Positions 4,928-58,887 of a stretch of 64,000 bases of DNA are shown one piece after another. Each line of letters starts with the position of its first letter. Positions within the stretch are counted from its first letter, which is position 1. The stretch comes from an uncultured Candidatus Saccharibacteria bacterium (GTDB lineage: Bacteria > Patescibacteriota > Minisyncoccia > UBA6257 > 2-01-FULL-56-20), in NCBI GenBank assembly GCA_964484655.1, contig CAZAFA010000003.1:28147-92146 (forward strand), written 5' to 3'. The position numbers and the translations under genes were made by a program. The notes beneath the pieces are model-generated. The model was given only the letters and a program-made list of their open reading frames with translations, was not told the DNA's origin and did no database searches.

Positions 4928-4956
4928 CTTATACGTATCTTTTGCTTATTTGACAA
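4928..4956 (-). promoter_or_regulatory. Sigma70-like promoter for the 4458..4883 gene: TTGTCA-17 nt-TATAAG on the minus strand
   Basis: AT-rich spacer. -35 TTGTCA (plus-strand 4951-4956) and -10 TATAAG (4928-4933) with a 17-nt spacer, followed by a GGGAGG Shine-Dalgarno. Confidence 0.45.
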
Positions 4957-12184: not shown

Positions 12185-12191
12185 GTGCGTG

Positions 12192-12545
12192 TTAGATAGT
12201 GAGTCCTGCTGCGCGGGCGCCTTCGGCGAGGGCTTTCACGCGGCCGTGGTAGCGGTAGCTGCCGCGGTCGAAGACCGCGGAGGTGACGCCGGCGGCCTTC
12301 GCTTTCTCGGCGATGAGCGCCCCGAGGAGCGCGCCCTGCTCGACGCGCGCGGCCTTCTGGTCGACCTGCTTGGTCGAAGCCGCGGCCAGCGTCACGTGCG
12401 AGCTGTCGTCGATCAGCTGCGCGTAGAGCGCCGCGTTGCTGCGGAATACGGTCAGGCGCGGGCGCTCGGCGCTGCCGCGCACCTTGGCGCGCGTGCGGCC
12501 GGCCCGGCGGAGACGCTTCACGGTAGGAGACTTGGTGCGGTTCAT
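12192..12545 (-). CDS. rplR: 50S ribosomal protein L18
   Basis: Sequence and spc-operon order. Confidence 0.9.
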   Translation of the reverse strand: MNRTKSPTVKRLRRAGRTRAKVRGSAERPRLTVFRSNAALYAQLIDDSSHVTLAAASTKQVDQKAARVEQGALLGALIAEKAKAAGVTSAVFDRGSYRYHGRVKALAEGARAAGLTI

Positions 12546-12557
12546 GGGTTCGGTGGT

Positions 12558-13091
12558 TTACTTGCCGGCCTTCTTGCCTGCCTTCATACGGACGAACTCG
12601 CCCTGGTAGCGGATGCCCTTGCCCTTGTACGGCTCCGGCTTACGGAACTTGCGGATGAGCGCAGCCGTCTGGCCGACGTCCTCCTTGCTCGTGCCCGAGA
12701 CCGTGATGAGGTTCTTCTCGACCGCGACGGTCACGCCGGCAGGCGGGTCGAACTTCACCGGATGCGAGAAGCCGAGCGCGAGGCTGAGCGTAGCGCCTTC
12801 CATGGCGGCGCGATAGCCGACGCCCTGGATCTCGAGGGTCTTGCTGTACCCCTCGGTGACGCCGATCGCGGCGTTGCGCAGCAGCGACCACTGGGTGCCG
12901 AGGTTGGCGGCGGCCTGGCGGTCAGTGCCGGTCAGGGTCACGGCGACGCCTTCCTCGCCCTGCGCGACCGAGACGCCGGCGAGCTTCTGGACGCGGAGCT
13001 CGCCCTTCGGACCGCTCACCGAATACGCGCCGTCCTTCTCGGTGAAGGTCGCGCCGTTGAGCGGGATGGGCTTGCGTGCGAGTCGTGACAT
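12558..13091 (-). CDS. rplF: 50S ribosomal protein L6
   Basis: MSRLARKPIPLNGATFTEKDGAYSVSGPKGEL... Confidence 0.9.
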   Translation of the reverse strand: MSRLARKPIPLNGATFTEKDGAYSVSGPKGELRVQKLAGVSVAQGEEGVAVTLTGTDRQAAANLGTQWSLLRNAAIGVTEGYSKTLEIQGVGYRAAMEGATLSLALGFSHPVKFDPPAGVTVAVEKNLITVSGTSKEDVGQTAALIRKFRKPEPYKGKGIRYQGEFVRMKAGKKAGK

Positions 13092-13102
13092 GGGAGTGGA
13101 GA

Positions 13103-13483
13103 TTACCAGATCTGGAAGAGATATTCGCCGCCGGCCTTCTTGTCGCGGGCCTCGGCGTTGCTGAGCACGCCCTGCGGAGTCGTGAGGACGCCGATGCCGT
13201 AGCCCTGGCGGACCGCCTTGATGTCCCGGTAGCCGGAATACAGGCGACGGCTCGGCTTGCTCACGATCTTGAAGTCCTGGAAGCGCGGCTTGCCGTCGTC
13301 GTAGGCGAGCTTGATGTCGAGGTAGAGCTTCTTGTCGGAGACGCGCTTCTGCACCTCCTTGATGAAGCGGTAGCGGACCAGGAGCTTGGCGATCTCATGG
13401 TTGAGCTTGCTGTACGGCGTCTGGAAGCCCTCCTTCCGGGCGGCGTAGGCGTTCTTGATCTTGGCGAGCAGGTCGTAGTGCAT
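13103..13483 (-). CDS. rpsH: 30S ribosomal protein S8
   Basis: Sequence and operon order. Confidence 0.9.
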   Translation of the reverse strand: MHYDLLAKIKNAYAARKEGFQTPYSKLNHEIAKLLVRYRFIKEVQKRVSDKKLYLDIKLAYDDGKPRFQDFKIVSKPSRRLYSGYRDIKAVRQGYGIGVLTTPQGVLSNAEARDKKAGGEYLFQIW

Positions 13484-13491
13484 GGCTTCGG

Positions 13492-13677
13492 TTACCAGGA
13501 GGACTTGCGGATGCCCGGGATGAGGCCGGCGGAGGCCATCTCGCGGAAGCAGATGCGGCAGAGACCGAAGTCGCGGATGTAGCCGTGCTTGCGGCCGCAG
13601 CGGAAGCAGCGCCGGACGACCCTCGTGCTGAACTTGGGCTTCTTCTTGCTGCGGGCGATGAGTGACTGGCGTGCCAT
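13492..13677 (-). CDS. rpsN: 30S ribosomal protein S14, Z-type (61 aa, Zn-binding)
   Basis: [46 protein letters not shown]. Confidence 0.9.
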
Positions 13678-21950: not shown

Positions 21951-24050
21951 TTAGCGGCGATCCGCGACGATGGAGGCCTCGATGTTCTTCGGCACCTCCT
22001 CGTAGTGGTCGAACTCCATGGTCGGCGCGCCGCGGCCCTGCGTGATGGAGCGGAGCTTCGTGATGTAGCCGAAGAGCTCGGAGAGCGGCACGAAGGCGTT
22101 GATCACCTTGATCATGCCGCGATCCTCGATCGAGTCCACCCGGCCGCGCTTGCCGGAGATGTCGCCGGTGACGTCGCCCATGAACTCCTGAGGAGCGCTG
22201 ACCTGCAGCTTCATGATCGGCTCGAGGAGAGCAGGATTGGCCTTCTTGGCCGCCTCCTGGAACGCCATCGAGCCGGCCATCTTGAACGCCATCTCGGACG
22301 AGTCGACGTCGTGGTAGCTGCCGTCGTAGAGGTCCACCGCGATGTCGACCATCGGGAATCCTGCGATGACGCCCCGGTCCATGGCCTCCTTCACGCCCTT
22401 CTCGATCGGGTTGATGAATTCCTGCGGGATGGCGCCGCCCTTCACGGAGTTCGTGAAGACGAAGCCGGAGCCCGGCTCGCCCGGCTTGATGCGGATCTTC
22501 GCATGGCCGTACTGGCCGCGGCCGCCGGACTGCTTGACGTATTTCCCGTCCCCTTCCGCCTCGGCGCGGATGGTCTCCTTGTACGCCACCTGCGGGCGGC
22601 CGACGTTGGCCTCGACGGAGAACTCGTCCTTCATGCGGCGCACGAGCACCTCGAGGTGCAGCTCGCCCATGCCCGCGATGAGCGTCTCGCCCGAATCCGG
22701 GTCCGAGGATACGCGGAAGGTCGGGTCCTCGTCCGCGAGGCGGCGGAGCGCGCCTCCCATCTTCTCCTGGTCAGCCTTGGTCTTCGGCTCGATCTTGATG
22801 GAGATGACCGGCTCCGGCGCGTCGATGCCGTCGAGGACGATCGGATGGGCCGGGTCGCAGAGCGTGTTGCCGGTCGTCGTGACTTTCATGCCCACGAGCG
22901 CGGCAATCTCGCCCGCGTACACCTCGCTGACCTCCTCGCGGTTGTTCGCGTGCATGCGCACGATGCGGCTCACGCGCTCCTGCTCCTCCTTGGTGGAGTT
23001 GAGGATGTACGAGCCCGTCTTGAGCGTGCCCGAGTAGACGCGGAAGAAGCAGAGGGAGCCGACGTACGGGTCGGTGGCGATCTTGAACGCGAGGCCGGTA
23101 AACGGCGCCTTGTCGTCGGTGGCACGCGTCACCTCCTGGTCGGTCTTCGGGTCCATGCCGACTACCGGCGGGATGTCGAGCGGGCTCGGCAGGTACTTGA
23201 TGACCGCGTCGAGCACGAGCTGCACGCCCTTGTTCTTGAGAGCCGAGCCGCAGAAGACCGGGACGATCTCGTTGGCGATGACGCCCTTGCGCAGCGCCTT
23301 GACGAGCGCCTCGTACGGGAGCTCCTCGCCGCCGAGGTACTTCTCCATGAGCGCCTCGTCCTGCTCGACGATCTTCTCGACGAGCATCTGGCGCCGGCGC
23401 TCCGCCTCCTCCTTGAGGTCAGCCGGGATCTCGAGGTCGACGATCTTCTCGCCGTTGTCCCCCTCGAAGCCGTACGCCTTCATCTTGAGCAGGTCGATCA
23501 CGCCCTTGTGGTCGGACTCGAGACCGATCGGCAGCTGCGCCATGACCGCGTTCTTGGTCAGGCGCTCGGTGATGGAGTCGAAGCTGCGCTCGAAGCTCGC
23601 GCCCATGCGGTCGAGCTTGTTGATGAAGCAGATGCGCGGGACGCGGTAGTCGTCCGCGTAGCGCCAGTTCGTCTCGGACTGCGGCTCGACGCCCGCGACG
23701 CCGTCGAAGACGGAGACGCCGCCGTCGAGGACGCGCAGTGAGCGCTTCACCTCGATGGTGAAGTCCACGTGGCCCGGCGTGTCGATGAGGTTGATGCGGT
23801 GCTCGTTTTCCTTGCCCGGCGCGTCGGTCGGGGTCCAGAACGCGGTCGTCGCCGCGGACGTGATGGTGATGCCGCGCTCCTGCTCCTGGGTCATCCAATC
23901 CATCGTGGCCGCGCCCTCGTGCACCTCGCCGATCTTATGGCTGACGCCGGTGTAGTAGAGGATGCGCTCGGAGACCGTGGTCTTTCCGGCGTCGATGTGC
24001 GCGAAGATGCCGATGTTGCGGATTTTCTCGAGAGGATGGGATCGAGGCAT
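21951..24050 (-). CDS. fusA: Elongation factor G
   Basis: 699 aa. [21 protein letters not shown] motifs. Confidence 0.95.
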
Positions 24051-26601: not shown

Positions 26602-26898
26602 ATGCATCACGGTTCCCACCACCTCGCGCGACGGCTGCGCGAATCGCCGAGCCTGTTCGACCGCTTCATGCTCGGAGTCAGCATCGCGGCGGCCTTCATG
26701 ACCCTGCCCCAGATCCTGGCAATCTGGCGCGACGGAGGGTCAGGCGTCTCGCTGGCATCATGGCTCGCGTACGCCCTCCACTCCTCACTGTGGCTCGTCT
26801 ACGGCATCAAGCATCGCGAGCGGACGCTCATCCTCGCGAACACGGTCTGGACCGCCATGAACCTCGTGGTCGTCGGCAGCGTCCTCGCGCTCCGTTGA
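26602..26898 (+). CDS. SemiSWEET-like PQ-loop sugar transporter (3-TM, about 77-98 aa). The true start is possibly ATG at 26668.
   Basis: MLGVSIAAAFMTLPQILAIW...SLASWLAYALHSSLWLVYGI...TLILANTVWTAMNLVVVGSVLAL matches the PQ motif and the W...Y pattern of the SemiSWEET triple-helix bundle. Confidence 0.55.
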   Translation: MHHGSHHLARRLRESPSLFDRFMLGVSIAAAFMTLPQILAIWRDGGSGVSLASWLAYALHSSLWLVYGIKHRERTLILANTVWTAMNLVVVGSVLALR

Positions 26899-26944: not shown

Positions 26945-27017
26945 GCCTCTATAGCTCAGTTGGTAGAGCAGCTCCCTCTTAAGGAGACGGTCCTAGGTTC
27001 GAGCCCTAGTGGAGGCA
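26945..27017 (+). tRNA. trnK: tRNA-Lys (anticodon CUU)
   Basis: GCCTCTA...TGGAGGC acceptor, D-arm GCTCAGTTGGTAGAGC, anticodon loop CUCUUAA, T-arm CTAGGTTCGAGCCCTAG. No encoded CCA. Confidence 0.75.
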
Positions 27018-27023
27018 CAGCGA

Positions 27024-27057
27024 GACAGAACGGGCGCCTGAAGGCGCCCGTTCTGTC
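27024..27057 (+). terminator. Perfect 15-bp hairpin GACAGAACGGGCGCC-UGAA-GGCGCCCGUUCUGUC immediately after tRNA-Lys
   Basis: Inverted repeat read directly from the sequence. No U-tract. Confidence 0.45.
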
Positions 27058-27085
27058 CTACCAGGGCGCGCGGTACACTCAGGGC

Positions 27086-29203
27086 ATGAAGCTCGAGACG
27101 CCGCTGTCTGCCGTACCCGGCATCGGGCCGCGCATGCTCGTGCCGCTGGCACGCCTGGGGCTCCATACGGTCCGGGACCTCCTCTGGCACTTCCCGGTCC
27201 GCTACGACGATTTCGTGGGCGTCGTGCCGATCGCCGAACTCGAGGCGGGCGCACAGGCGACCGTGTTCGCCGAGGTGACCGAGCTCGAGACCCGGCGCTC
27301 CTTCCGCAAGAAGCTGACCATCACCCAGGCGACCCTGACCGACGAGACCGGTTCGGTGCACGCGACCTGGTTCCAGCCCTACATGGCACAGCAGCTAGCG
27401 CCAGGCATCCGCGGGTACTTCGCCGGCAAGGTCGCCCAGCGGGACGGCCGGATTGAGCTGCCTGGTCCCGTCTTCGAGCGGGCGCGAGACCAGGGCGCGC
27501 AGCGCCATACCGGGCGCCTGGTACCGGTCTACCCCGAGACGCGCGGCATCACCTCGCGCGGCCTGCGCTACCTCATCATGCCGATCCTCGAGCAGATCGA
27601 CGCGCTTCTCGACCCGCTCGCCGGCGCGGCGGAGCAAGCCGGCTATCCGGACCGGCTCGAGGCCTTGCGCGCGGTGCACTTCCCGGACTCGCGCGACGAG
27701 GCGGCGCGCGCCCTGGACCGGTTCGCCTTCGAGGACCTGTTCGTCCTGCAGCTGGCGAACGCGCTCTCCAAGGCCGAGCTCGTCCAGAGCGCCGCGCGTC
27801 CGCTCGCCGTTCCCGTCGAGGAGCTCAAGGCGATGGTCGCGGCGCTCCCGTTCGCTCTGACGAAGCCGCAGAAGGCGGCGCTCTGGGAGGTCCTCCAGGA
27901 TATGGAGCGTCCGCATCCGATGAACCGCCTCGTGCAGGGGGACGTCGGCTCCGGCAAGACCGTCGTGGCCGTCCTCTCCTCCCACGTCGCGGCGCGCGCC
28001 GGAGCCCAGGCGGCGCTCATGGCCCCGACCGACGTCCTCGCGCGCCAGCATTTCGCCACGTTCACAAAGGCGCAGTCCTGGCTCGACGGGACCGGCGACC
28101 TCCCTACTGTCGCCCTCATCTCAGGTAATCACGGCGAGATCCTCTATCCTGAAGGCCTCCGCGCGGAGATGAAGCCCGCGAAGGTCCGCGCGCTGATCGC
28201 TGCCGGCTCGGTGGACATCGCGGTGGGAACCCACGCGCTCATCTCGGGAGGTACCGCCTTCCCGCGCCTGGGACTGGTCGTCATCGACGAGCAGCACCGG
28301 TTCGGCGTCGATCAGCGCAAGGCGCTCGTCGGCAGCGGCGCGAAGCTCCCCCACTTCCTGAGCATGACGGCCACGCCGATCCCGCGCACCGTCATGCTCA
28401 CGGCGTTCGGGGACCTCTCGACCTCGCTGATCACCGAGCTGCCGGCAGGGAGGCAGCCGATCCGGACGGTGATCGTCGAGCCTGGAGGCCGCGACGCCCT
28501 CTACCGGGAGCTCGACGCGCAGATCGGCGAAGGCAGGCAGGTGTTCCTGGTCTGTCCCCTGATCGAGCACGCCGAGCCGGACGAGACGCTCTCGCCTGCC
28601 GCCCGCGCGAAGCAGGAAGCGCTGCTCGAGGCCAGGTCGGTCGCCCAGGCCGCGGATCATGCCCGGGAAGCCCTCCCGCACCGGCACGTGGCAACGCTCC
28701 ACGGGAAGATGAAGGCCGCCGAGAAGGCGGAGGTCATGGCGGACCTCGTCGCCGGGCACATCGACGTGCTGGTAGCCACCACGGTCATCGAGGTCGGCGT
28801 CGACGTGCCGAACGCTTCCGTGATGGTCGTCGAGAGCGCGGACCGGTTCGGCCTCGCGCAACTCCATCAGCTCCGCGGCAGGATCGGCCGCGGCGGCCAC
28901 TCCTCGACCTGCTACCTCATCGCTGAGTCCGCCTCGAGGACTTCCCGGGAGCGGCTGCAGCTCCTCGCGACGACGTCGGACGGGTTCGCGCTCGCCGAGC
29001 ACGACCTGCGCCTGCGCGGTCCCGGCCAGCTTCTCGGCAGCCAGCAGAGCGGCCTGCCGGACCTGGCCATGCGTCACATGGGGAACGCGCGGCTGGTGAA
29101 GGCCGCCCGCGACGCGGTCGGCGCGACGCTCGCCTCGGGCGGCGTCACGCGCGACATGCTCCGCGAGGTCGCGCGCCTGCGCGCGCGGATGCATCGGGAA
29201 TAA
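27086..29203 (+). CDS. recG: ATP-dependent DNA helicase RecG
   Basis: ORF 26960..29203 trimmed to MKLETPLSAVPGIGPRM. Wedge domain, GDVGSGKT Walker A, DEQHRFG, helicase C motifs. Confidence 0.85.
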   Translation: MKLETPLSAVPGIGPRMLVPLARLGLHTVRDLLWHFPVRYDDFVGVVPIAELEAGAQATVFAEVTELETRRSFRKKLTITQATLTDETGSVHATWFQPYMAQQLAPGIRGYFAGKVAQRDGRIELPGPVFERARDQGAQRHTGRLVPVYPETRGITSRGLRYLIMPILEQIDALLDPLAGAAEQAGYPDRLEALRAVHFPDSRDEAARALDRFAFEDLFVLQLANALSKAELVQSAARPLAVPVEELKAMVAALPFALTKPQKAALWEVLQDMERPHPMNRLVQGDVGSGKTVVAVLSSHVAARAGAQAALMAPTDVLARQHFATFTKAQSWLDGTGDLPTVALISGNHGEILYPEGLRAEMKPAKVRALIAAGSVDIAVGTHALISGGTAFPRLGLVVIDEQHRFGVDQRKALVGSGAKLPHFLSMTATPIPRTVMLTAFGDLSTSLITELPAGRQPIRTVIVEPGGRDALYRELDAQIGEGRQVFLVCPLIEHAEPDETLSPAARAKQEALLEARSVAQAADHAREALPHRHVATLHGKMKAAEKAEVMADLVAGHIDVLVATTVIEVGVDVPNASVMVVESADRFGLAQLHQLRGRIGRGGHSSTCYLIAESASRTSRERLQLLATTSDGFALAEHDLRLRGPGQLLGSQQSGLPDLAMRHMGNARLVKAARDAVGATLASGGVTRDMLREVARLRARMHRE

Positions 29204-29220
29204 ACCCTATACTGAGGATC

Positions 29221-30561
29221 ATGGCACGCCGCACCGGCCCGCTGGTAGCGCTCGCAGGCATCGCCGCCCTCGCGGCGCTCTGCGTCGCCTCGCCGCGCTT
29301 CCTCGCCTTCTTCCATCACTACGCGAACTTCCTCGCCGTCGGGAGATCCTCGACGAAGCTGGCCGCGCTCGGCATCCTCGCGGCGATCGCCTGCGTCGCG
29401 CTCCTCATGCGTCCTCTGATGGCGGAATCACGTGCACGCAAGCTCCTCCACGGATGCCTCTACGCGCTGCTCGGCATCTCGCTGCTCTCCACGCTCGGCA
29501 TGGCTCTCCTGGGCGCGCGCATGGGCGTCCCCCTCAACACGACCTTCTACGCGGTCAACGACCGTGAGTTCAGCTTCAGCCACCTGACCCACAGCCATCT
29601 CCTCAGGCCAGTCAGCTATCCGGCACAGGCTGTCGTCAGCAACGAGGTCGGCACCGCATGGTTCGACGTGCTGCGTACGTTCTTCGGGATACCCCGTCCG
29701 GCGCTCGTCGCATTCTACGGCGCCTATGCGGCCTTCCTCGCCGTACTCGGCATCGCGAGCCTCGCGTACCTCCAGCACCTGCGCGGCGGCGCGCTCATCG
29801 CGCTCTATCTCGCCGGCATCGCCGCGGTCCTCAAGAGCGGCGTGGACGGCGCGTTCCTGGACCTCGCGGCGCTGCTCGGGATCCTCGTCATCGGATGGAT
29901 GCTGCGGGACCGCTTCCTGGCGCTGCTGCCGGTTCCCTTCCTCGTCTTGAACGCGTACGTCTGGTTCACGCCGACCTACGGCGCGCAGCTCGCCGTCAGC
30001 CTCATGCTCTTCGGATGCCTCGCGCTGATCCTCGCCGCGACGCGTTCCCGCGGCATCCTCCGCCTCGCCAGCTCCGGGGCAGCCCTGCTCGTCGCGCTCG
30101 CCTTCGTCTGGGGCGGGAGCCGGGTCTCCTTCTTCGGCGGCGACGCAGAAGCCGCGACGCCTTCGGACGAGCCTGTCATCCCGGCCCAGCAGGCCGTGTA
30201 CTTCCTCCCGCGCGGATCCGGCTTCCCGCAACGGGTCACGACGACCGCGACGACGAGCCCGGCTGCGTTCGTGCGCGCGCACGACGCGGTCTTCGAGAAC
30301 CTCCAGGAATCGCTGCGCATGCCAGACAGCACCTGCCGCGAAGGCCAGCGGCAGATGCTCCTCACGAGGATACGCATCTTCACGCCGGCTGCGGAAGCCG
30401 CGGAGTCGTTCAGCGTGCCCCCCTGGATCGAAGCTGCCTACAGCAACGGGTACTACCGCGTCACCATGGATTCCTGCATGCCGAACCTCCTGCCTTCGCT
30501 GGTCAGGACCGTGAAGACGAGGTTCCCTGACGAGGTCATCGTGATCGCCTTCCTGCGCTAG
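29221..30561 (+). CDS. Polytopic membrane protein (about 9 TM) with a C-terminal soluble domain, function unknown
   Basis: 446-aa ORF with many hydrophobic helices. Convergent with, and overlapping by 26 nt, the CarS-like gene. Confidence 0.5.
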   Translation: MARRTGPLVALAGIAALAALCVASPRFLAFFHHYANFLAVGRSSTKLAALGILAAIACVALLMRPLMAESRARKLLHGCLYALLGISLLSTLGMALLGARMGVPLNTTFYAVNDREFSFSHLTHSHLLRPVSYPAQAVVSNEVGTAWFDVLRTFFGIPRPALVAFYGAYAAFLAVLGIASLAYLQHLRGGALIALYLAGIAAVLKSGVDGAFLDLAALLGILVIGWMLRDRFLALLPVPFLVLNAYVWFTPTYGAQLAVSLMLFGCLALILAATRSRGILRLASSGAALLVALAFVWGGSRVSFFGGDAEAATPSDEPVIPAQQAVYFLPRGSGFPQRVTTTATTSPAAFVRAHDAVFENLQESLRMPDSTCREGQRQMLLTRIRIFTPAAEAAESFSVPPWIEAAYSNGYYRVTMDSCMPNLLPSLVRTVKTRFPDEVIVIAFLR

Positions 30562-31066
30562 CGGCGTGCAGGGCAGCAGAGCGGATGCCGAACGCCGCCG
30601 CCGCGGCGTTCGCGGTCGCCTGGAACCCGAAGACGAAGACGAGGTAATATACAGCTGAGAATCCTGGCGGATGCACGTCCAGGAGAGACAAGCCGATGAT
30701 CACCGCCAGCGCGTAGTCGACGTGGTCGAGTACCGACCGCGTGCCCTCCTTCATGCCCAGCCGGCGCTTGACGAAGCTGCTCGCGAGAGTGCCGGCAAGC
30801 GCGAAGAGCCCGAGCATGAAGCCGAGCCTCGGATCGCCTTGCAGCCATCCCACCGTCCCGGCGCAGAGTACAATGAACGCGGAACCGGCGACGGTACGGC
30901 TGTCCCCGAGGATGCGATGGCGGCCGAGACGTCGCCCGCCATCGAGCGGCGTCGCGGGCAGGATCCGCCAGCGCGCGATCAGGAAGTACCAGAAGACGGC
31001 GGTCGCGGCGTTCGCGATCCAAGCAGGAGCACCGTACCACACGGTGCTCATGAGCAGATCGATCAT
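30536..31066 (-). CDS. CDP-archaeol synthase-like (DUF46/CarS family) CTP-transferase membrane protein
   Basis: WRILPATPLDGGRRLGRHRILGDSRT and C-terminal SFVKRRLGMKEGTRSVLDHVD match the CarS/CdsA-superfamily signature. 176 aa, 4-5 TM. Its start overlaps the LamG gene stop (ATGA). Confidence 0.55.
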   Translation of the reverse strand: MIDLLMSTVWYGAPAWIANAATAVFWYFLIARWRILPATPLDGGRRLGRHRILGDSRTVAGSAFIVLCAGTVGWLQGDPRLGFMLGLFALAGTLASSFVKRRLGMKEGTRSVLDHVDYALAVIIGLSLLDVHPPGFSAVYYLVFVFGFQATANAAAAAFGIRSAALHAASAGRRSR

Positions 31067-32718
31067 CTAGGCGTCATCGGGTCTGGGGGTTCGTCGCCGC
31101 CGCCCGGAGGAGGCGCTCCAAAGTACAAATTATGCAAGGCGATGATATCGCTCTGGCTAAGGGCCCCGTTATAGATGCGCAGCTCGTCAATGGTGATGTC
31201 ACCATCTCCCTTGTTACCGAGGCTCATATAGTCTCCGAATATTGACGTTTCGCTCGATGCAGGATGCGAAGGATTGCTCCCATACGTCTCGAAGAGCAGG
31301 ATGCCATCCTGATACACCATGCCATGCCCACCCTCGCGAACAATGGTTATCATCTTCCAACTATACGGGGCAAGCGTGTTGGTATTAGCTGAAAGCCAGG
31401 TAGCCCATCCTCCGTCAGCTTTTGACTCACCAAAAAAGGACCAACCGCTTGGGTCTCCACCGTATCCCGAGATGCGACTTCCCGCCTGTAGGCGAATATG
31501 GTAATCGACCTGCAATCCGTCGAGGTCACCCTTCTTGAAGACATTCCATTGCCGAGATGAATCAGACACGGACCCGTCCGCGTTAACGTTCCATAGGAAG
31601 TTGATACTCATATCTCCAGGGAGCTGCATGGACGGTGAATCGGGCACGGTCATTCGATTGTTTGAAAAGAGCATACCTGTGTTGCTGAAGCCGGCTGGCC
31701 ACGAATTTATGTCGAAGGTGCCATAGTTCAAATATTCACTGTTGTCTCCAGCGGTATTGCCGCTACCCTCGTCAAAAGACCAATGTCCGACTAATGTCGC
31801 GATTACTCCGCAAGTATTGTTCGCGTTGTAGATGCTGTCATTACAGTCGATGCCTACCTGCTGTATATAGCGCCGCCTGCCGTTGGTAGGAGCGGAATCT
31901 TGCAGATACATCGTACTGGCCGCAGGATAACCGTCTGCATCAGAGTCAACCTGCCAGATGTTTGTCTGAAGGATGGCACAGCCGCCGCAGAGCGCGATAC
32001 TTCCGTTCGAAAGGATCGAAATTTGCATACCGCTGTTGAAAGCGAAGTTTGCATTAAGCGTCAAGGAATTATTGATGGTAACGTTGCCGTTATCGACTCC
32101 GTCCGCTGACGATATGACGCAGGGATCGTCCTTGTCCCCAAGGGTATAGTCGCCTCCTGGTGGAATACCGCAGGCGTCGGACCAAGCGAGAACCACTGAT
32201 GAGGAATCATTACCTGCCTCGGCCGTGATGGTCGTATAGTACTTGGTGTTATGCGTGTCGTGCACGACCCACTCTCCACGATAGCGTCCGCGAATAACCT
32301 CATCTGCAAAAGCATTCTGCGTATTGGTCTTTTCGCGACCAGCTACGAAGCCGGCAAGCCGATCCGGCACAGCCTCAGCAACTCCGACATAAGCTAGATT
32401 CAACCGAACGATCTTGTTGTCAGTCTCAATGTCAGCATAGACCGCAGTGACCGGTCCGCGAGATTCGATGACCGCCTCGATGACCTGCGTGTCGCCGACG
32501 TGCACATCAGGCGGGTTGATCGTCGCCTGGACGATCTTCGGCCATACCTCGGCCGCCTGTGCGATCGAGTAAGTCTGCTCGCCGCTCGGCAGGTTCGCGA
32601 GAGGTCCCGTTGGTGCAGGTTTGTCGAGCTTGTCGTAGTAGCTTATCGGGAGGAGTGCGAGCACCGCAATCGCGAGAAGGCTCCCCGCTCCTAAGCCGAA
32701 CATGAGTTTCCTATTCAT
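31063..32718 (-). CDS. Secreted or anchored protein with a C-terminal LamG/concanavalin-like lectin domain. Locally lower GC.
   Basis: N-terminal signal/TM (MNRKLMFGLGAGSLLAIAVLALL). C-terminal LVGHWSFDEGSGNTAGDNSEYLNYGT...LRIYNGALSQSDIIAL is typical of the Laminin_G_3 domain. Asn/Ser/Gly/Cys-rich middle. Confidence 0.6.
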   Translation of the reverse strand: MNRKLMFGLGAGSLLAIAVLALLPISYYDKLDKPAPTGPLANLPSGEQTYSIAQAAEVWPKIVQATINPPDVHVGDTQVIEAVIESRGPVTAVYADIETDNKIVRLNLAYVGVAEAVPDRLAGFVAGREKTNTQNAFADEVIRGRYRGEWVVHDTHNTKYYTTITAEAGNDSSSVVLAWSDACGIPPGGDYTLGDKDDPCVISSADGVDNGNVTINNSLTLNANFAFNSGMQISILSNGSIALCGGCAILQTNIWQVDSDADGYPAASTMYLQDSAPTNGRRRYIQQVGIDCNDSIYNANNTCGVIATLVGHWSFDEGSGNTAGDNSEYLNYGTFDINSWPAGFSNTGMLFSNNRMTVPDSPSMQLPGDMSINFLWNVNADGSVSDSSRQWNVFKKGDLDGLQVDYHIRLQAGSRISGYGGDPSGWSFFGESKADGGWATWLSANTNTLAPYSWKMITIVREGGHGMVYQDGILLFETYGSNPSHPASSETSIFGDYMSLGNKGDGDITIDELRIYNGALSQSDIIALHNLYFGAPPPGGGDEPPDPMTPR

Positions 32719-32721
32719 GCT

Positions 32722-35700
32722 CTACGGGATTATGAAGCCGGTCGCCTTGTCGGTTGTGCGGTTGCTCCACGAATCAGCATCGAACCGCGGCGCGGTAAAG
32801 CGATAGCTGACCTCGACCGAGTCGCGCTTCTCGAACGGGGTAGCGATGATGGTCAGCGTGCCGTCGCCCTTCTCGTAGCGTACGCGGCCGTCGAAGCCAG
32901 GAGTCAGGAGGATTGAGGCCTTCGGTAGATGCTTGCGGATGTCGGTCACCTTGCCGAAGAGCCAGAGATCGGAGCCATGGTCCTCCTTGGCGAAGTCGAT
33001 GAGCTTCACGCAGCGGCCGTCCACGCATGAAATCTCGAGATCGCCAGCGACCTCTTCCTTCACGCCGATCATACCGGCCATGTAGGTCGCGAACTTTTCG
33101 TTTCCAATCTGATAGATCGGGTCGATAGTACCGACGTTGATCTTTCCTGCGCCATCTCCGATGGTGAGCGTATCCCCTGAGCTGGTACCGATTCGCGCGG
33201 TCGTGCCGCCGGCGCTTGCGACGTCGAGCAGGTACCCCGGCGTCTTGGTGCCGATACCCACGTTGCCGCTCGCGAAGAAGGTGTAGACTCCGCCGCCGCC
33301 GCCTGACGCGAGAGCGATCTGGTTGGTGGTCGTGCCGAGATACCCGTTGCGGAACTGGATCGCCGACCACCAACTCCCCTCACCTTCGATCGTCAGGCCG
33401 TTGTAGCCGTTGTCATAGATCCGGTTGCTGATGCTGCCGTTGCTGTGCCAGGCAAGCGAGGATGAGGTGTTCATGATCAGGCGATCCGTGGATCCGAAGT
33501 TCGGGAAGGCAGAGGCGCCTGAGATTCCAAGTACTAAGTTTCCGCTCTGCGTGATGCTGGCGATTTCGTTGCCGCCTGTGTTGAAGATACCGAGGCGATT
33601 TGCTGGAAGGCTCACGTCGTTGCTGCCACGGTTATCGACGAACCAGGTGTTCGAATTGCTCGTGAAGTTGATGCCGGCGATACCAGATCCCGTGCTCGCG
33701 GCTATCCGCGCCTGGCTGCTGCCGGTTGTGCCGACGCTCAAGAGGTTACCGCTGGCGGTTGTACTCAGCGTCACAGTGCCTGGGAACGTGTAGTTCCCGC
33801 CGCCGGTGTTCGCGCCGAAACTTCCCGAAGAAACGTTGGCTGCCGCGATCGTGCCACTGCCGCTGGCTGCGGTTGTCTGTGTCGTGCCGTCCGGGAAACG
33901 GAATCCGCCCGACGAGCTATAGATGGTACCAGCGACTGTAAGCTTGTAGCCAGGCGTCGTTGTGGCAATACCTACGTTTCCGTTCGCTTGTATCTTCATC
34001 AAATTACCGCCACCCGCGCTTGTGAACTGCCAGTATTCATTAGTTCCACAGCCGGTCGAACCAAAGGTAACTTGCTGCGCTCCTGCTATGTACTGGGCGA
34101 ACATACCGCAGGAATCAGCAGCATTATTCGCGAAATAAAGTGCCCCACTTCCAATATCAAGGCGTCCACTTGGTGTAGCGATGCCAATACCGACGCTCCC
34201 GTCTGATCGAACGGTGAGGCGCTGCGTGCCACCAGTTGAAAGACTGATGGTGTCGCCTCCGCTCCAATACAAACCTGTATTGGTATCACCTATCGCGGCC
34301 AGCGACGGTGCTGCCGCGGATCCGTTCGTCATCCCAACCGTGCCGTCGGCCATGACGCCAAAGTTGGTGCCCGTTCCACCGACACCTCCATCACCCGCGG
34401 GACCGACGCAGAAGCGATATGTGCCACCATAGCATCCTATGCCGACCTGCTGACCGAGGAAATAGGTATCCCAGCCACCGCCTGCGCCGATCACCGTGTT
34501 GCTCGGATTGTTGCTGTTACCGATGACAAGTCTGCCGAGCGGCTGATTCGATACCGCATTGAGCGTGGTGAAGCCGGCACCTCCTGTTGCACTCACGTTG
34601 AAGTAGTAATTACCGCTGGCATCACCGTTGAAGCGTACACTGCCAGGGAAGGTATAAATGCCGCCGCCAGTATTTGCCCCAAACTGTCCGGATGAAACAT
34701 TTGCGGCAGACATTGTTCCCGCTGCCGCCGTCGTCTGAGTCGTACCATCGGGGAACCGGAACCCACCTGAGGAGCTATGAATAGTGCCTACTACTTGGAG
34801 CTTGTACTGGGGATCGCTGGTGCCTATGCCGACATTACTAGTGCTCCAGTCAATATTGAGAAGATCGACCCCGGCCGTCTCGTCCCGAATGATGAAATCG
34901 TAGTAACGCCCGGTCACTGCAGCTCCGCCGTACGGAGTAAGGATGCTGTACGTCTTTGTGTTGGAGCCGTTACCTGACGCGATCCGCATCGCAGCATCGT
35001 TCTGGTACGTATTTGATCCAAGCTGGAGTAAGGATCCGGGGCTTGTCGTTCCGATACCCGTGTTGCCGTTAGCCAGAATTGTCATACGTACGTTCGCGTT
35101 CGTGCCAAAACTCAAGGGATGATTCGAATATGTGCCAAGAATCATGCCCGCTGGTGCGCCCCACCAACCGATCTCATGCGCGAGAACGCGTGCATCGATA
35201 GCTGCAGTACGAACTGATAGCTTCGCGTGGCTGGCGCCAAGGATATCGAGTACGCGGCTCCAACCCTCACTATTCTCTGGCGAAGTGGTCCCCACTACGA
35301 CATGCGCAGGAAAGGCGTAATTTCCGCCTCCAGTGTTAGCGCCGAACGAACCAGCGGAGATGTTTGCTGCTGCCATAGTACTACTTCCAGAAACAGCTGC
35401 CGTCGACTGTGTCGTACCGTCAGGGAACATGATGTAGCCCGCGCTAGTGATCGAAAGAAGTCTGGTGCCCGCGCTATTCTGGGTATCGATGATGTTTGCC
35501 GACTGGCTGGCTGCTCCGCGCACAACCATGACTGGCTGCGTCGCGGTCCAGGCATTGCCGAAGAAGTTCGCTGCCGACTGCGCGCTGCCGACGCCGAAGT
35601 AGGAGCGCATATTGGCCGTGTCATAACCGAAATTCGTGCCAAGGATACCGGTCGTGGTAATTCGGAACTGTTCTGTTGAATTTGGCCTGAATACAAACGG

Positions 35701-36354
35701 AAGTGAAGCATTAGTATCAAACCAGAGTCCGGTGCCTCCGTATCCGAAGATGGTTCCGACCGGGGATCCGTTACCAACAAAGCTAATTGTAGGATAGTAG
35801 CCCCCTGCAGGAGCATAGAGTGTCAGACCCGGGTTTACTGAGGACACGTCGGCATAGATACGACTACCGCCCAAACTCGTCCTGTTAATATCGAGATTAT
35901 ATGAGGGAGCGGTACCGATACCGACGCTTGAAGGGAAGGTATAGTTCCCGCCACCCGTGTTCGCACCGAACTGGCCCGAGGAGACGTTCGGGGCTGACAT
36001 GGTGCTGCCCAGCGCGGTCCCGTTCACAGTCAGCGTCCCCTGGACGTTGGTCGTGCCGTCGTTGCGCACCCAGAAGAGCGAGGATCCGGCGGAGTTGTAG
36101 GCGTGGACGGCATACGCCGCGGAGGTCGTGCCGCTGCCGTAGACGTTCAGGCGGTTCGCCGACGCGACCGTGCTCGATCCGATAGCGACGTTGTTACTCG
36201 CATCGGTCGCGATTGCGCCGCTGCCGACGCCGCCAGAACCGGAAGGCCCGATGAACGCGTCAGCGACGCTGATCGCGATCACGCCCGCTGCGATGAGGCC
36301 GGATACGCCGAGCGCGATCAGCCCGAACGCTGGTGATGACTGCCGGAGGCGCAT
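32722..36354 (-). CDS. Giant (1210 aa) Gly/Ser/Thr/Asn-rich cell-surface repeat protein with fibre-like, beta-helical-looking repeats
   Basis: N-terminal signal/TM (FGLIALGVSGLIAAGVIAISVADA). Four copies of an (M/I)SAANVSSG(Q/S)FGANTGGGNYTFPG motif and three copies of FRFPDGTTQTTAA. A compact C-terminal domain of about 110 aa. Confidence 0.6.
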   Translation of the reverse strand: MRLRQSSPAFGLIALGVSGLIAAGVIAISVADAFIGPSGSGGVGSGAIATDASNNVAIGSSTVASANRLNVYGSGTTSAAYAVHAYNSAGSSLFWVRNDGTTNVQGTLTVNGTALGSTMSAPNVSSGQFGANTGGGNYTFPSSVGIGTAPSYNLDINRTSLGGSRIYADVSSVNPGLTLYAPAGGYYPTISFVGNGSPVGTIFGYGGTGLWFDTNASLPFVFRPNSTEQFRITTTGILGTNFGYDTANMRSYFGVGSAQSAANFFGNAWTATQPVMVVRGAASQSANIIDTQNSAGTRLLSITSAGYIMFPDGTTQSTAAVSGSSTMAAANISAGSFGANTGGGNYAFPAHVVVGTTSPENSEGWSRVLDILGASHAKLSVRTAAIDARVLAHEIGWWGAPAGMILGTYSNHPLSFGTNANVRMTILANGNTGIGTTSPGSLLQLGSNTYQNDAAMRIASGNGSNTKTYSILTPYGGAAVTGRYYDFIIRDETAGVDLLNIDWSTSNVGIGTSDPQYKLQVVGTIHSSSGGFRFPDGTTQTTAAAGTMSAANVSSGQFGANTGGGIYTFPGSVRFNGDASGNYYFNVSATGGAGFTTLNAVSNQPLGRLVIGNSNNPSNTVIGAGGGWDTYFLGQQVGIGCYGGTYRFCVGPAGDGGVGGTGTNFGVMADGTVGMTNGSAAAPSLAAIGDTNTGLYWSGGDTISLSTGGTQRLTVRSDGSVGIGIATPSGRLDIGSGALYFANNAADSCGMFAQYIAGAQQVTFGSTGCGTNEYWQFTSAGGGNLMKIQANGNVGIATTTPGYKLTVAGTIYSSSGGFRFPDGTTQTTAASGSGTIAAANVSSGSFGANTGGGNYTFPGTVTLSTTASGNLLSVGTTGSSQARIAASTGSGIAGINFTSNSNTWFVDNRGSNDVSLPANRLGIFNTGGNEIASITQSGNLVLGISGASAFPNFGSTDRLIMNTSSSLAWHSNGSISNRIYDNGYNGLTIEGEGSWWSAIQFRNGYLGTTTNQIALASGGGGGVYTFFASGNVGIGTKTPGYLLDVASAGGTTARIGTSSGDTLTIGDGAGKINVGTIDPIYQIGNEKFATYMAGMIGVKEEVAGDLEISCVDGRCVKLIDFAKEDHGSDLWLFGKVTDIRKHLPKASILLTPGFDGRVRYEKGDGTLTIIATPFEKRDSVEVSYRFTAPRFDADSWSNRTTDKATGFIIP

Positions 36355-36363
36355 GGGTACCGC

Positions 36364-36927
36364 TTAGCGCGACGCGACGACGAGATAGCCGATCGGGCCT
36401 TGCGAGGGACCGCCGAGGTTGCTGCAGAAGAACTGGTACTTGCCGGTCGCGGTCGCAGGCGGCGTCACTTCGATGAGCTGTTCGCGCTGCGACGTGAACG
36501 TTGCAGAGAGCCCGAGGTCGGGCTGCACGAACGAGCAGGTGCCGCTGGTCGTCTTGAAGCGGATCGAGGTCGTATCGCCAGCGTGCACGATAACATTCGC
36601 AGGTGAGAACGTGTTTCCGTTGAACGTAATGTCGAACGTGCGCCGCTTTGCCTCGACACCCGGCGCGGCCGGAGCGACGCTTACCGGCACGGCGACATCG
36701 CCGCTTACCTGTGCGCCCGCGTCAGGTACGACGATGTCGGTTGGGACTTCGGACCGGGTCGTCGTCGTCGCTACACCTTGGTTCTGGTTGCCGTTCTGAC
36801 CTCCCTGTCCGGCGGGAGCCTTACGGGCGATCGACCAGCCGATGAGCAAGCCCGCAGCGAGAACCGCGGCGAGGATAGCTATCTCGGCGACCGTCACGAG
36901 ACGAGAGCGAGTTTCGGGGTTGTTCAT
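36364..36927 (-). CDS. Membrane-anchored extracytoplasmic protein with a weak resemblance to a cupredoxin-like beta-sandwich
   Basis: ORF trimmed to MNNPETRSRLVTVAEIAILAAVLAAGLLIGW (TM anchor). Low-complexity Gln/Asn/Gly linker, then a beta-rich domain ...VIVHAGDTTSIRFKTTSGTCSF...KYQFFCSNLGG. Confidence 0.4.
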   Translation of the reverse strand: MNNPETRSRLVTVAEIAILAAVLAAGLLIGWSIARKAPAGQGGQNGNQNQGVATTTTRSEVPTDIVVPDAGAQVSGDVAVPVSVAPAAPGVEAKRRTFDITFNGNTFSPANVIVHAGDTTSIRFKTTSGTCSFVQPDLGLSATFTSQREQLIEVTPPATATGKYQFFCSNLGGPSQGPIGYLVVASR

Positions 36928-36970: not shown

Positions 36971-37798
36971 CTAGAGCGCGACCCAGACGTAGCTCGAGCT
37001 TGCGTTCCGCAGGCACGCCTCAATCGAGTCGCTCCCCGCTCCGGCCTGGGTCACCCAGAGCATGCCGCGGATGCTGCTGGTACAGCTCGGCTTCCCGGAA
37101 GCGGTGTTCAGGCGCACGCCGCCGTCCACCTCGAGCTTCGCGTTCGGGCTCGCCGAGCCGATGCCTACATTGCCCGAGGAGAAGTAGATGACGTCGTTGA
37201 TGTTGCTCCAGAGCTGTCCGCTCGCGCCGAGCTTGTACGCGTTGCTCGAGCTCGGGAGGACGTCCGCGTCGAAGCTCGCGGCGGAGACGCGCGTCACGAG
37301 GACGTCCAGGAAGCGCGCGACCTGGCGCGTCGTCGCCTGCGCGTTGCTGATCGTGAGGTTGACGCTGAGCGCGTCCTTGCCGCCCGGGTTGCTCCTCTTG
37401 GTGAACGTCGCGTTCGCGACGGTGACCGCGTCGGTGGTCAGCGCCTGCGCGGCGTCATTCCCCTGCTTCAGCCATACCTTGCTGTCGCTGACCCAGATGC
37501 TCGTCGGGTCCACCGACGAGCTCGCCATGCGCAGCATGACGCCCGAGGAAGCGACGGCGGACGTCCCCTCGATGTAGCTGCTCTGCTCGACGAGGCGCTG
37601 CACCTGCGCGAGCACGAAGTCGCTCTGCTGGTTCACCTCGTTGCTCGCGCTCTGCTTTGCCTGCACGCGGACGACCGCGACGAGGATCGAGATGAAGGAG
37701 ATGCTCACGAGCGCGAAGATCGCCGCGAACAGCAGCAGCTCGATCGTCGAGAATCCCTTTCGCGAGACGGTACGCTTCATGCCGGAAGTATACCGCAT
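36971..37798 (-). CDS. Type IV pilin or pseudopilin-like protein
   Basis: Class III leader with KG|FSTIELLLFAAIFALVSISF (prepilin peptidase site, E+5) and a C-terminal disulfide loop C-x22-C. The start is ATG at 37798 or 37780. Confidence 0.7.
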   Translation of the reverse strand: MRYTSGMKRTVSRKGFSTIELLLFAAIFALVSISFISILVAVVRVQAKQSASNEVNQQSDFVLAQVQRLVEQSSYIEGTSAVASSGVMLRMASSSVDPTSIWVSDSKVWLKQGNDAAQALTTDAVTVANATFTKRSNPGGKDALSVNLTISNAQATTRQVARFLDVLVTRVSAASFDADVLPSSSNAYKLGASGQLWSNINDVIYFSSGNVGIGSASPNAKLEVDGGVRLNTASGKPSCTSSIRGMLWVTQAGAGSDSIEACLRNASSSYVWVAL

Positions 37799-37806
37799 CC
37801 GCTCCC

Positions 37807-39356
37807 CTAGCTGCTCGCGGCGCCTCGCGTCTTCGGCGTCACCCAGAAGCCGAGCCGGAACCGGCCGCCGAGCGCGAGACGCGTCTGCGCCTCCAAGCCT
37901 GGGAAAGCGCCGAAGACGATCAGCGAGAGCGGGAGGAGGAGCCACTGCAGCACGAACCACGCGTACTGCCGCTTCCTGAAGTTGGCTGGACGCGGCGGAA
38001 GGAGCGTGATCGCCATGATCGCCGACGAGACGATCGTCACCATGGAGAGGGTGATGACGAAACGCGTGATGCGCGGGAGGTTGTACGAGAGGAGCGTGTT
38101 GTTGAACGCCTCACCGCCGAGCATGAGCGGGAGCCAGCCGAGCACGAAGATCATGATGCTGTTGGTCGCCCAAGAGTGGAATCCCTCGAGGCCGGAGAAG
38201 GTCCAATAGAGCTTCTTGCGCAGCGCGATGCGCTTGTTCTCGATGAATCCCTCGAGCATGTACGGCATGTTCTCGACGCCCCAGCCCCAGCGGCGCTGCT
38301 GCTTGTAGAGGTTGATCATGGTCTTCCAGAAGCTCGGGACGACGTTCGCGTCCATGTACACCGGGAAGTGGAGCGGTACCACCGAGAAGTCGCCGTCGTA
38401 GCGGAAGAACGCCTGCCAGAAGATGCGCGAGTCCTCTGAGACGACGTCCTTGTGCCAGTACCCGACGTCCATGAGGAGCCGCAGCGGGACCGCCTGCGAC
38501 GAGAAGGTCGTCAGGCGCTCCGGCCGGGACTGCTGCATCATCTGCCAGAACGTGCAGCTCCAGGCGATGACGCGCCCGAGCGCTGGCGTCTCGTACACGT
38601 TGTTGGTGAAGAACGGCACCGGCTGATAGATCTTCCGGAGCGGGTCGGGCGAGGTGAGGTAGGCGTGCGCGACGCGGCCGAAGTATCCGTTCGGGATCTG
38701 CGTGTCCACGTCGAAGACGGAGACGATGACGCGACGGGGGTCGACGCCCTTCTCGGTGATGAGCTTCGGCACCGCGATCGCCCCGGCGTACGCCTCGTTG
38801 CTCCCCTTCCCCTGGATCTCGCCAGGCAGGCCGTCCGGATGGACGGTGACGAGGAACGAGCCGAAGCGCGACCCGAACTCCTCCTCGATCAGACGCGCGG
38901 TCTCGAGCGGCGCGTCGCCTGCGCGCTCCTCGAGCGCGAGCACGACGTCGAACGACTCGAGCGGATAGCGCGCCTGCGTCAGGGAACGGAAGCTCTCGCG
39001 CACGAGCTCGTACGGCTCGGTGTACATCGGCAGCATGATGAGATGCCGGATATCGCGCCACGAGCCGATTCCCTCGACGGTGAGATCGTCCGGTTTGAGC
39101 TCGTCGAGCCGCGCTTCCCAGTCCACGTCGAGGTTCGCGCGCAGCTTCTTGTAGGTGGACCGGAGGTGGAACGCGAGGAAGACGGACTTCAGGAGCCAGT
39201 ACGTATCGAAGAGGATGATGAAGATGGCGGCCCAGACCGGCACGAGCCATGAGGCGAGGACCATGCCGACGAGTGTCGCCCAGGCGAGGATCGCCGGCAC
39301 TGTCTCGAAGAACCGCATGCGGCGGCTCTTCCTGGCGGGATACGCGTCGGCGTCCA
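37807..39356 (-). CDS. Processive family-2 glycosyltransferase (cellulose/chitin/NodC-type synthase-like). Integral membrane.
   Basis: ORF 37807..39651 trimmed to MDADAYP. Motifs VFDVDTQ (DxD) and QQRRWGWG (QxxRW). N- and C-terminal TM bundles. Confidence 0.65.
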
Positions 39357-39450
39357 TCTGATGCAATGGTAGCGCGCAGGGCGCTTGAAGCCTGGGGATA
39401 CTACGCCCGGCTTCACGGAGCGGCAAGGTGGCCATGCTATCCTCCTTTAT

Positions 39451-39804
39451 ATGAAGGACATACCGCCCATCGTATTCATAGCCGGAGCTGTCGTGCTCGG
39501 AGTCGTCGCCCTGGCCCTCCTCATCTTCTTCCGGCCGCGGACGGCGGTCGTGCAGACGCCGGCTCAACCCGGACTCCCCACGCAGACCCAGGGCGTCCTG
39601 AAGGGCTTCGACAGCTACAACCTGCCCGGATCTCCCGAGGGCATCTCCCAACCGAACACGACCCGTCTACCCGGGAAGCCTGCGCCGACCACGCAGCCGC
39701 AGGAACCGACATACTGCACGCAGGACGCGATGCTCTGCCCGGACGGCAGCTACGTCGGCCGCGTGCCGCCGAGCTGCCAGTTCGCGGCGTGCCCGGGGAG
39801 CTAG
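39451..39804 (+). CDS. Small membrane-anchored, Pro/Thr/Gln-rich protein with a C-terminal 4-Cys module
   Basis: ORF 39385..39804 trimmed to MKDIPPIVFIAGAVVLGVVALALLIFF. Ends with ...YCTQDAMLCPDGSYVGRVPPSCQFAACPGS. Confidence 0.45.
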   Translation: MKDIPPIVFIAGAVVLGVVALALLIFFRPRTAVVQTPAQPGLPTQTQGVLKGFDSYNLPGSPEGISQPNTTRLPGKPAPTTQPQEPTYCTQDAMLCPDGSYVGRVPPSCQFAACPGS

Positions 39805-58803: not shown

Positions 58804-58887
58804 GGGCTATTATGCCGATTCGAACCCGACGGTTCTACCCTTCGGGCGCGCTTTGCCAATTCCCGGCCTGCGGCGATAATGCGCCCG

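Follow-up and report, generated by a model that had tools for sequence, protein, structure and literature searches.

With other enzymes, CDP-archaeol synthase (CarS; Pfam family PF01864) defines the archaeal side of the 'lipid divide'. The CTP-transferase superfamily to which it belongs also includes CdsA (PF01148; TmCdsA of T. maritima is an example), a protein of about 250-290 aa with extra N-terminal and dimerisation helices, as well as the CTP-dependent dolichol, phytol and farnesol kinases (likewise in PF01148), which are polytopic membrane enzymes that act on isoprenoid lipids. CarS is Mg2+-dependent, is stimulated by K+ and prefers unsaturated digeranylgeranylglyceryl phosphate (DGGGP) over phosphatidic acid (PMC9385802); its reaction is analogous to that of CdsA, with which it has a common catalytic core (PMC9385802, PMC7018664). 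The ultra-small bacteria of the candidate phyla radiation (CPR, or Patescibacteria) lack de novo lipid synthesis, and a salvage route in which phospholipids are rebuilt through CDP-diacylglycerol has been proposed for them (PMC6031116); the present analysis touches on the question of how these cells construct and decorate their membranes. Literature searches found no paper describing CarS or CDP-archaeol homologues in these bacteria. Here we analyze a CarS-like gene located in a 64,000-nt stretch of the Patescibacteria contig CAZAFA010000003.1 (hereafter, the window), together with a membrane-protein gene, the partner, that adjoins it in all ten clade loci analyzed. The two genes converge as follows:

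30536..31066, minus strand: CarS-like (PF01864) membrane protein of the CTP-transferase superfamily, 176 aa, five transmembrane (TM) segments, a member of a rare Patescibacteria clade (open reading frame, Pfam, NCBIfam, 5GUF match and AlphaFold2 model)
29221..30561, plus strand: conserved partner, 446 aa, about nine TM segments, a 67-aa conserved loop and a C-terminal domain of about 150 aa (homologues in the clade loci)
30536..30561, no strand assigned: 26-nt overlap of the convergent 3' ends of the CarS-like and partner genes (open reading frame coordinates)

A previous sequence-only reading of the window assigned the 176-aa product to the CarS type of CTP transferases rather than to CdsA, which it described as longer and different at the N-terminus. 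This assignment is borne out. The minus-strand translation holds exactly the two motif stretches on which the reading relied, PATPLDGGRRLGRHRILGDSRTVAGS (also given as PLDGGRRLGRHRILGDSRT) and SFVKRRLGMKEGTRSVLDHVDYAL (also given as KRRLGMKEGTRSVLDHVD). In Pfam, PF01864 is the single family detected (42.5 bits against a gathering cut-off of 22, E = 9e-11), with no match to PF01148 (CTP_transf_1/CdsA) even at E<=10 and no sign of the adverse outcome that had been envisaged, an assignment to the CdsA or dolichol-kinase families; several more distant PF01864 relatives also match PF01148. The only meaningful match among PDB sequences is CarS of Aeropyrum pernix (ApCarS, 5GUF; E = 2e-5), and the same structure is the only one retrieved at E<=1e-3 by Foldseek (E = 1e-4, probability 1.00, TM-scores of 0.63 and 0.69), with no CdsA chain among the matches. 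The query for that search was an AlphaFold2 model derived from an alignment of 36 sequences (mean predicted local distance difference test score, pLDDT, of 92.6; predicted TM-score of 0.87), in which helices span residues 2-32, 59-75, 79-102, 113-128 and 138-158, followed by a short C-terminal helix. At 176 aa, the protein is about 100 aa shorter than CdsA and lacks the N-terminal and dimerisation helices of the latter (PMC7018664). The reading frame itself is coding and not a chance product of high GC content: the GC content is 0.80 at third and 0.54 at second codon positions, the Pfam match is significant, and homologues at 31-61% identity have the N-terminus and the length in common with the query. 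The open reading frames that overlap the gene (30558-31040, minus strand; 30671-31174 and 30741-31070, plus strand) are spurious alternative frames of a 66% GC genome.

Membership in the family does not extend to equivalence with the archaeal enzyme. The NCBIfam equivalog model for CDP-archaeol synthase, NF003114, aligns with the query from end to end (residues 2-162), with a score of 64.4 bits against a cut-off of 148; under the same model, a Sulfolobales protein passes with 161.6 bits, a relative from a CPR context scores 105, a Competibacteraceae protein scores 82, and two further members of the clade described below score 62.5 and 77.3. Because the model is failed by such a wide margin, the label 'archaeal CDP-archaeol synthase' that the sequence-only reading attached to the gene denotes a family resemblance rather than a function. 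The CarS-like protein is a genuine PF01864 member whose fold is that of CarS and whose invariant core is intact, and it is not the equivalog or orthologue of the archaeal synthase.

The query and the characterized archaeal proteins, ApCarS and its A. fulgidus counterpart AfCarS (both PF01864 and NF003114), are similar in length (176 aa against about 160-180 aa) and in the arrangement of five TM segments and two cytoplasmic loops; with ApCarS, identity is 29% over 163 aligned columns. The family motifs N, P-x-D-x-G, G-D-x-[KR]-T-x-x-G and S-F-x-K-R-R-x-G...D-x-x-D are retained. The roles of individual residues were deduced from conservation across 277 aligned relatives: K100, R101 and D114 are present in 277 of 277 and D42 in 271, and the query keeps all four, along with N19, P40, G54, T58, G61, G92, S97, F98 and D117. 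The query departs from the family at three otherwise conserved positions, with Arg for the motif Lys at position 57 (Lys in 233 of the 277), Thr for Asp at position 93 (Asp in 217) and His for Gln at position 115, next to an invariant Asp (Gln in 216). The second of these changes affects the Asp of the 'G-D' motif in TM3, which is found in the family and in ApCarS and is Thr93 here; position 93 is Thr or Ser in all 12 members of the clade and in 20 other relatives as well. In addition, the segment between N19 and P40, at the end of TM1 and the beginning of the first loop, exceeds its CarS counterpart by about 10 residues, and the C-terminal helix is extra. The query further differs from CarS in its CPR host, in the presence of an obligate neighbour of unassigned family and in the absence of archaeal lipid pathway genes nearby.

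Close relatives of the query are few. An exhaustive phmmer search of 1.84 billion representative sequences produced 341 matches at E<=1e-3, only three of them close (P0029, P0030 and P0031, with 50%, 48% and 35% identity, respectively), and a profile search of 5.8 billion proteins yielded about 12 clusters with scores of at least 182 bits, the next score being 101 bits. All clade members carry precomputed PF01864 matches, and one (P0303) is labelled by NCBI 'MAG: CDP-archaeol synthase [Patescibacteria group bacterium]', where MAG stands for metagenome-assembled genome. In an unbootstrapped neighbour-joining tree, the clade of 12 is monophyletic and separate from both the named archaeal sequences and a gammaproteobacterial group; it splits into subclade A, which includes the query and is characterized by R57/T93/H115, and subclade B, with K57, Ser or Thr at position 93, and Q115. 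A scan of genome contigs retrieved only a gammaproteobacterial locus with 36% identity, and a scan of metagenomes retrieved a single locus, L004. The claim of the sequence-only reading that CarS-like genes are rare in bacteria therefore has to be narrowed: this particular Patescibacteria clade is rare, and bacterial PF01864 proteins in general are not, being present in Ca. Competibacteraceae (MCB1824204.1), in Contendobacter, in a gammaproteobacterial MAG (DATCIR010000282.1) and in a MAG labelled simply 'bacterium'. These other bacterial proteins resemble the query in size, in being uncharacterized and in falling below the equivalog cut-off (82 bits), but they retain the GD Asp and the Lys and Gln, carry Pro in place of the second Asp of DxxD, form a separate group in the tree, and occur in unrelated metabolic contexts with no gene of the partner family. 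The native base composition of the query gene and the recurrence of RecG and TsaD genes near the CarS-like loci of the clade suggest that the clade has been inherited vertically, rather than acquired recently from archaea.

The most conspicuous feature of the clade is the linkage to the partner. A homologue of the 446-aa protein (417-466 aa) adjoins the CarS-like gene in 10 of 10 clade loci (the window/L001, L003, L004, L005, L006/7, L008, L009, L011, L017 and L018), with GC contents that range from 29% to 67%. In subclade A, the order is LamG gene, CarS-like gene and convergent partner, with 3' overlaps of 11-26 nt (11-20 nt in L003, L009 and L018, similar to the 26 nt in the window); in subclade B, the partner is divergent, with the two start codons 8-23 nt apart. 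The pairing thus persists through a change from convergent to divergent orientation. Furthermore, the pairwise identities of the CarS-like and partner proteins co-vary, with a Spearman correlation coefficient of 0.83 for 45 non-independent pairs. Among the fetched loci, matches to the partner hidden Markov model are confined to the clade and are absent beside the other types of CarS-like genes (L002 and L012-L016). The sequence-only reading, which did not mention this gene, named a family 2 glycosyltransferase (GT2) as adjacent; the conserved functional neighbour is this unannotated membrane protein, encoded on the opposite strand.

The partner belongs to no family that we could identify: six members gave no Pfam match at E<=10, and no matches were detected in NCBIfam, among PDB sequences (profile search) or in plasmids (tblastn). 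Within the family, the invariant motifs are HHYxN..GRSxxK, YAV..SF..HxH..P and K..DG, and the invariant residues comprise H32, H33, Y34, N36, G41, R42, S43 and K46; Y110, A111, V112, S118 and F119; H124, H126, P130, G144 and W147; K205, D209 and G210; C419; and K432. About nine hydrophobic segments are apparent, and the conserved loops and the C-terminal domain tentatively face the outside. Two points are new here, the recognition of a separate subfamily in the Patescibacteria in which conserved residues have changed, and its strict linkage to an uncharacterized membrane-protein family; the PF01864 family and fold were already known, and one clade member had been annotated automatically in GenBank.

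One specific identity of the partner was considered and rejected, that of a YdjM-type membrane metallohydrolase (PF04307). The idea was raised by a fusion protein (P0048), by YdjM genes near the CarS-like genes of L012 and L013 and by a shared string, 'HLTHS', in the partner; an hhalign comparison of the partner and YdjM alignments gave a probability of 0.7%, and Pfam yielded no match. The observations on YdjM itself concern proteins outside the clade: P0048 (331 aa) is an N-terminal YdjM-like/CarS-like fusion, and YdjM genes are located two genes downstream of the CarS-like genes in L012 (9972-10517) and L013 (1575-2120). These links hint that CarS-like proteins of other bacteria may act in lipid remodelling.

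From family membership and residue conservation, the CarS-like protein is predicted to activate a lipid phosphate in a CTP-dependent manner. In the reading that we favour, it does so together with the partner in the metabolism of a cell-surface lipid or glycoconjugate, a proposal to which we give roughly even chances. Under this scenario, the two cytoplasmic loops (PLDGG...GDSRT and SFVKRRLG...LDHVD) would bind CTP and Mg2+, and CMP would be transferred to the phosphate of a membrane lipid on the cytoplasmic face, giving rise to a CDP-activated lipid; the candidate substrates are diacyl-phosphatidate, an isoprenoid glycerol phosphate or a polyprenyl phosphate. The partner, with its His-rich loops and its C-terminal domain tentatively on the outside, would then use or process this product on the way to a surface lipid or glycoconjugate, so that the two genes would form an accessory module specific to the Patescibacteria clade. 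The genes that recur around the pair fit a role of this kind. A LamG gene is located directly upstream of the CarS-like gene in 6 of 6 subclade A loci, and its product carries a prepilin N_methyl signal in L005 and L009; type IV pilus genes (T2SSE, T2SSF, Peptidase_A24 and N_methyl pilins) are found near the pair in L005, L006, L008 and L011; and in L005 and L017 the two paired genes are separated by one for a Polysacc_synt flippase of the Wzx/MurJ type.

Several observations weigh against this proposal. The changes to T93, R57 and H115 affect otherwise conserved positions, so that the handling of metal or nucleotide may differ from that in ApCarS, and we know of no bacterial PF01864 protein that has been characterized biochemically. 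Adjacency in compact, syntenic CPR genomes can in part reflect shared ancestry, and RecG and TsaD recur nearby too. The outward topology of the partner comes from a crude hydropathy and positive-inside count, and a single-sequence structure model of this protein is unusable (pLDDT of 44). Finally, neither the scanned open reading frames of the window nor the Pfam labels of about 150 kb of clade loci include a CDP-alcohol phosphatidyltransferase, PlsC, UbiA or geranylgeranylglyceryl phosphate (GGGP) synthase gene, and the context therefore lends no support to a glycerophospholipid head-group pathway.

Three other explanations compete with the CTP-dependent activation of a surface lipid by a two-gene module. 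The protein could be a CTP-dependent lipid kinase that phosphorylates polyprenol (undecaprenol-like), regenerating or salvaging the polyprenyl-phosphate carrier for the flippase, the partner and enzymes of envelope glycosylation. The superfamily provides the precedent of the dolichol, phytol and farnesol kinases, the changes at three conserved positions could signify altered chemistry, and the glycan and surface context is suggestive: apart from the flippase of the multidrug/oligosaccharidyl-lipid/polysaccharide (MOP) superfamily between the paired genes, a small soluble NTP_transferase (PF00483/PF12804) is encoded directly after the CarS-like gene, on the same strand, in two subclade B loci (10664-11305 in L006 and 4318-4998 in L011), Glycos_transf_4 (MraY/WecA-type) and GT2 genes are present elsewhere in the window, and the layout of the partner, with multiple TM segments and an external C-terminal domain, resembles that of Wzy, WaaL and GT-C-type enzymes, whose substrates are linked to polyprenyl. 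However, all known kinases of the superfamily belong to PF01148, which the query does not match, and dolichol kinase (Sec59/DOLK) and phytol kinase (VTE5) are far larger and show no sequence match to it; the sole activity characterized in PF01864 is, to our knowledge, cytidylyl transfer; no similarity of the partner to any of the GT-C, Wzy or WaaL families was detected; and the flippase is present in only two of the ten loci. We consider a kinase unlikely. A replacement of CdsA, in which the protein would make CDP-diacylglycerol for housekeeping purposes from scavenged phosphatidic acid and the link to the partner and surface genes would be inherited synteny, agrees with the analogous reactions and common catalytic core of CarS and CdsA (PMC9385802), with the proposed lipid salvage of CPR bacteria via CDP-diacylglycerol (PMC6031116) and with the absence of cdsA from the scanned open reading frames of the 64-kb window (cdsA is likewise missing from the Pfam labels of the clade loci, and pgsA/pssA from both). 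Nevertheless, a housekeeping gene should be common, whereas only about 12 clusters were found among 5.8 billion proteins despite the abundance of Patescibacteria sequence, and a pairing that outlasts rearrangement from convergent to divergent across GC contents of 29-67% is hard to ascribe to synteny alone. Moreover, AfCarS cannot stand in for CdsA in an E. coli cdsA mutant and, when purified, discriminates against phosphatidic acid (PMC9385802). The replacement of CdsA thus appears distinctly unlikely.

The remaining alternative takes the database name at face value: a genuine synthase of CDP-archaeol (a CDP-isoprenoid-glycerol), in a bacterium that makes archaeal-type ether lipids or re-uses those of an archaeal host. 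Such a role would be in keeping with the CarS family and fold and with the NCBI name of one clade member, and it can draw on the homologues of GGGP and DGGGP synthases reported in one Ca. Parcubacteria genome (PMC7852524) and on the reported parasitism of some Patescibacteria on methanogenic archaea (PMC10936435, PMC12281837). Against it stand a score of less than half the equivalog cut-off (64 against 148 bits, with 162 for the Sulfolobales control), the substitution of three otherwise conserved residues in the clade, the monophyly of the clade apart from the named archaeal sequences, and the native composition (GC3 of 0.80 and gene GC content of about 0.66) and RecG/TsaD synteny, which indicate vertical descent. 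In addition, no gene for glycerol-1-phosphate dehydrogenase, GGGP synthase or DGGGP synthase/UbiA was present in the scanned open reading frames of the window or in about 150 kb of clade loci. Because the protein represents a rare, divergent bacterial branch that is always paired with one uncharacterized membrane protein, true synthesis of archaeal lipids is probably not its role, and we regard this explanation as very unlikely.

A bolder version of the two-gene reading can be envisaged as well, a Patescibacteria-specific two-protein system that would activate an isoprenoid-type lipid phosphate (archaeal-like or polyprenyl) with CTP and hand it over to an outward-oriented enzyme with a new fold or from a new family. 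We rate this version as very unlikely; if true, it could allow an episymbiont to re-use lipids of its host, possibly an archaeal one, or to build a new CDP-lipid-derived anchor for pili or giant surface proteins. More generally, a divergent CarS branch inside the Patescibacteria that is tied to one membrane protein among pilin, LamG and flippase genes offers a testable two-gene handle on lipid activation, and databases that name such bacterial genes 'CDP-archaeol synthase' read too much into family membership. Should the substrate be isoprenoid or of the archaeal type, the system would bear directly on the questions of the lipid divide and of host dependence; should it be diacyl-phosphatidic acid or polyprenol, the outcome would be a modest reassignment, though still a useful one.

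Upstream of the CarS-like gene, the minus strand carries a string of genes separated by gaps of about 45 nt or less, in the order GT2-like, pilin-like, cupredoxin-like, 1210-aa surface protein, LamG and CarS-like:

31063..31066, minus strand: ATGA stop/start overlap of the LamG and CarS-like genes (translational coupling; sequence read)
31063..32718, minus strand: LamG-domain (Laminin_G_3) surface protein, 546-551 aa, directly upstream of the CarS-like gene (PF13385, 35 bits)
32722..36354, minus strand: 1210-aa repetitive surface protein rich in Gly, Ser, Thr and Asn (open reading frame; faint Tcp10_C match only)
36364..36927, minus strand: cupredoxin-like protein, 187 aa, open reading frame to 37023 (PF13473, 38.6 bits; gene call in L001)
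36971..37780, minus strand: type IV pilin-like protein, 269 aa, with the prepilin motif GFSTIELL, KGFSTIELLLFAAIF (translation; gene call in L001)
37807..39435, minus strand: GT2-like processive synthase with multiple TM segments and QQRRW and SED motifs, first large gene of the string (motifs and weak profile matches)

The ATGA coupling noted in the sequence-only reading is real. The minus strand reads ...ATG ACG CCT AGA TGA TCG..., and the TGA of the LamG gene (31065-31063) overlaps the ATG of the CarS-like gene (31066-31064). The 'envelope operon' of that reading is more exactly a cluster of pilin-like, LamG and giant surface-protein genes of a CPR bacterium. The 1210-aa protein consists of reiterated blocks, such as SSGGFRFPDGTTQTTAA and GANTGGGNYTFP, and the GC content across its gene drops to 0.555-0.58, compared to about 0.66 for the window. 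A promoter and terminator scan of the region from 29 to 41 kb detected four promoter-like sites, not above the chance expectation of 3.0, with a weak candidate at 40327-40300, and no minus-strand terminator.

The GT2-like gene had been described as adjacent to the CarS-like gene and as the possible recipient of a polyprenol-phosphate carrier step. Its actual location is 6.7 kb, or four genes, upstream, and its product, with the QQRRW and SED motifs, is of the processive type (weak, below cut-off matches to Glyco_trans_2_3, at 22.3 bits, and to PgaC_IcaA). Processive QxxRW synthases take nucleotide sugars as the direct substrates of polymerisation, with no requirement for a polyprenyl-phosphate carrier, which makes a carrier step feeding this enzyme unlikely; given the distance and the motif, we rejected the CarS-like protein as a supplier of carrier lipid to the GT2. 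The start of the open reading frame of this gene (37807-39651) is over-called: the Logan gene call is 542 aa long, and the alignment with the L004 orthologue (12011-13498; 47% identity), which lies 1.5 kb from the CarS-like gene of that locus, starts at residue 113.

With regard to the host, the closest relatives of elongation factor G (EF-G; 21951..24050) are 88-92% identical, and the named ones, at about 70% identity, come from Ca. Liptonbacteria, Ca. Harrisonbacteria and 'Patescibacteria group' MAGs. The gap between the genes for ribosomal proteins S5 and L15 (11272-12184, minus strand) measures 10 nt and holds no L30 gene, an arrangement that is a hallmark of the CPR. The EF-G relatives and the missing L30 gene, with which the pilin-like genes, the giant surface proteins and a class I (archaeal-type) lysyl-tRNA synthetase (PF01921, 350 bits; 4946-6598, minus strand) are compatible, identify the host, as far as sequence can tell, as a high-GC bacterium of the Parcubacteria type within the Patescibacteria/CPR. 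The synthetase is the second gene of the window with an archaeal flavour.

Some other genes of the window are worth recording. A 588-aa protein (57483-59249, minus strand) combines a YkuD L,D-transpeptidase domain with a Peptidase_S11 (D-Ala-D-Ala carboxypeptidase) segment. A SemiSWEET-like membrane protein of 98 aa (26602-26898, plus strand; MtN3_slv, 22.4 bits against a cut-off of 23.7) is encoded between tRNA-Arg and tRNA-Lys/RecG. The annotated start of the RecG open reading frame (26960-29203, plus strand) overlaps tRNA-Lys (26945-27018), and the true start is probably a few codons downstream (739 aa in the Logan call against 747 aa).

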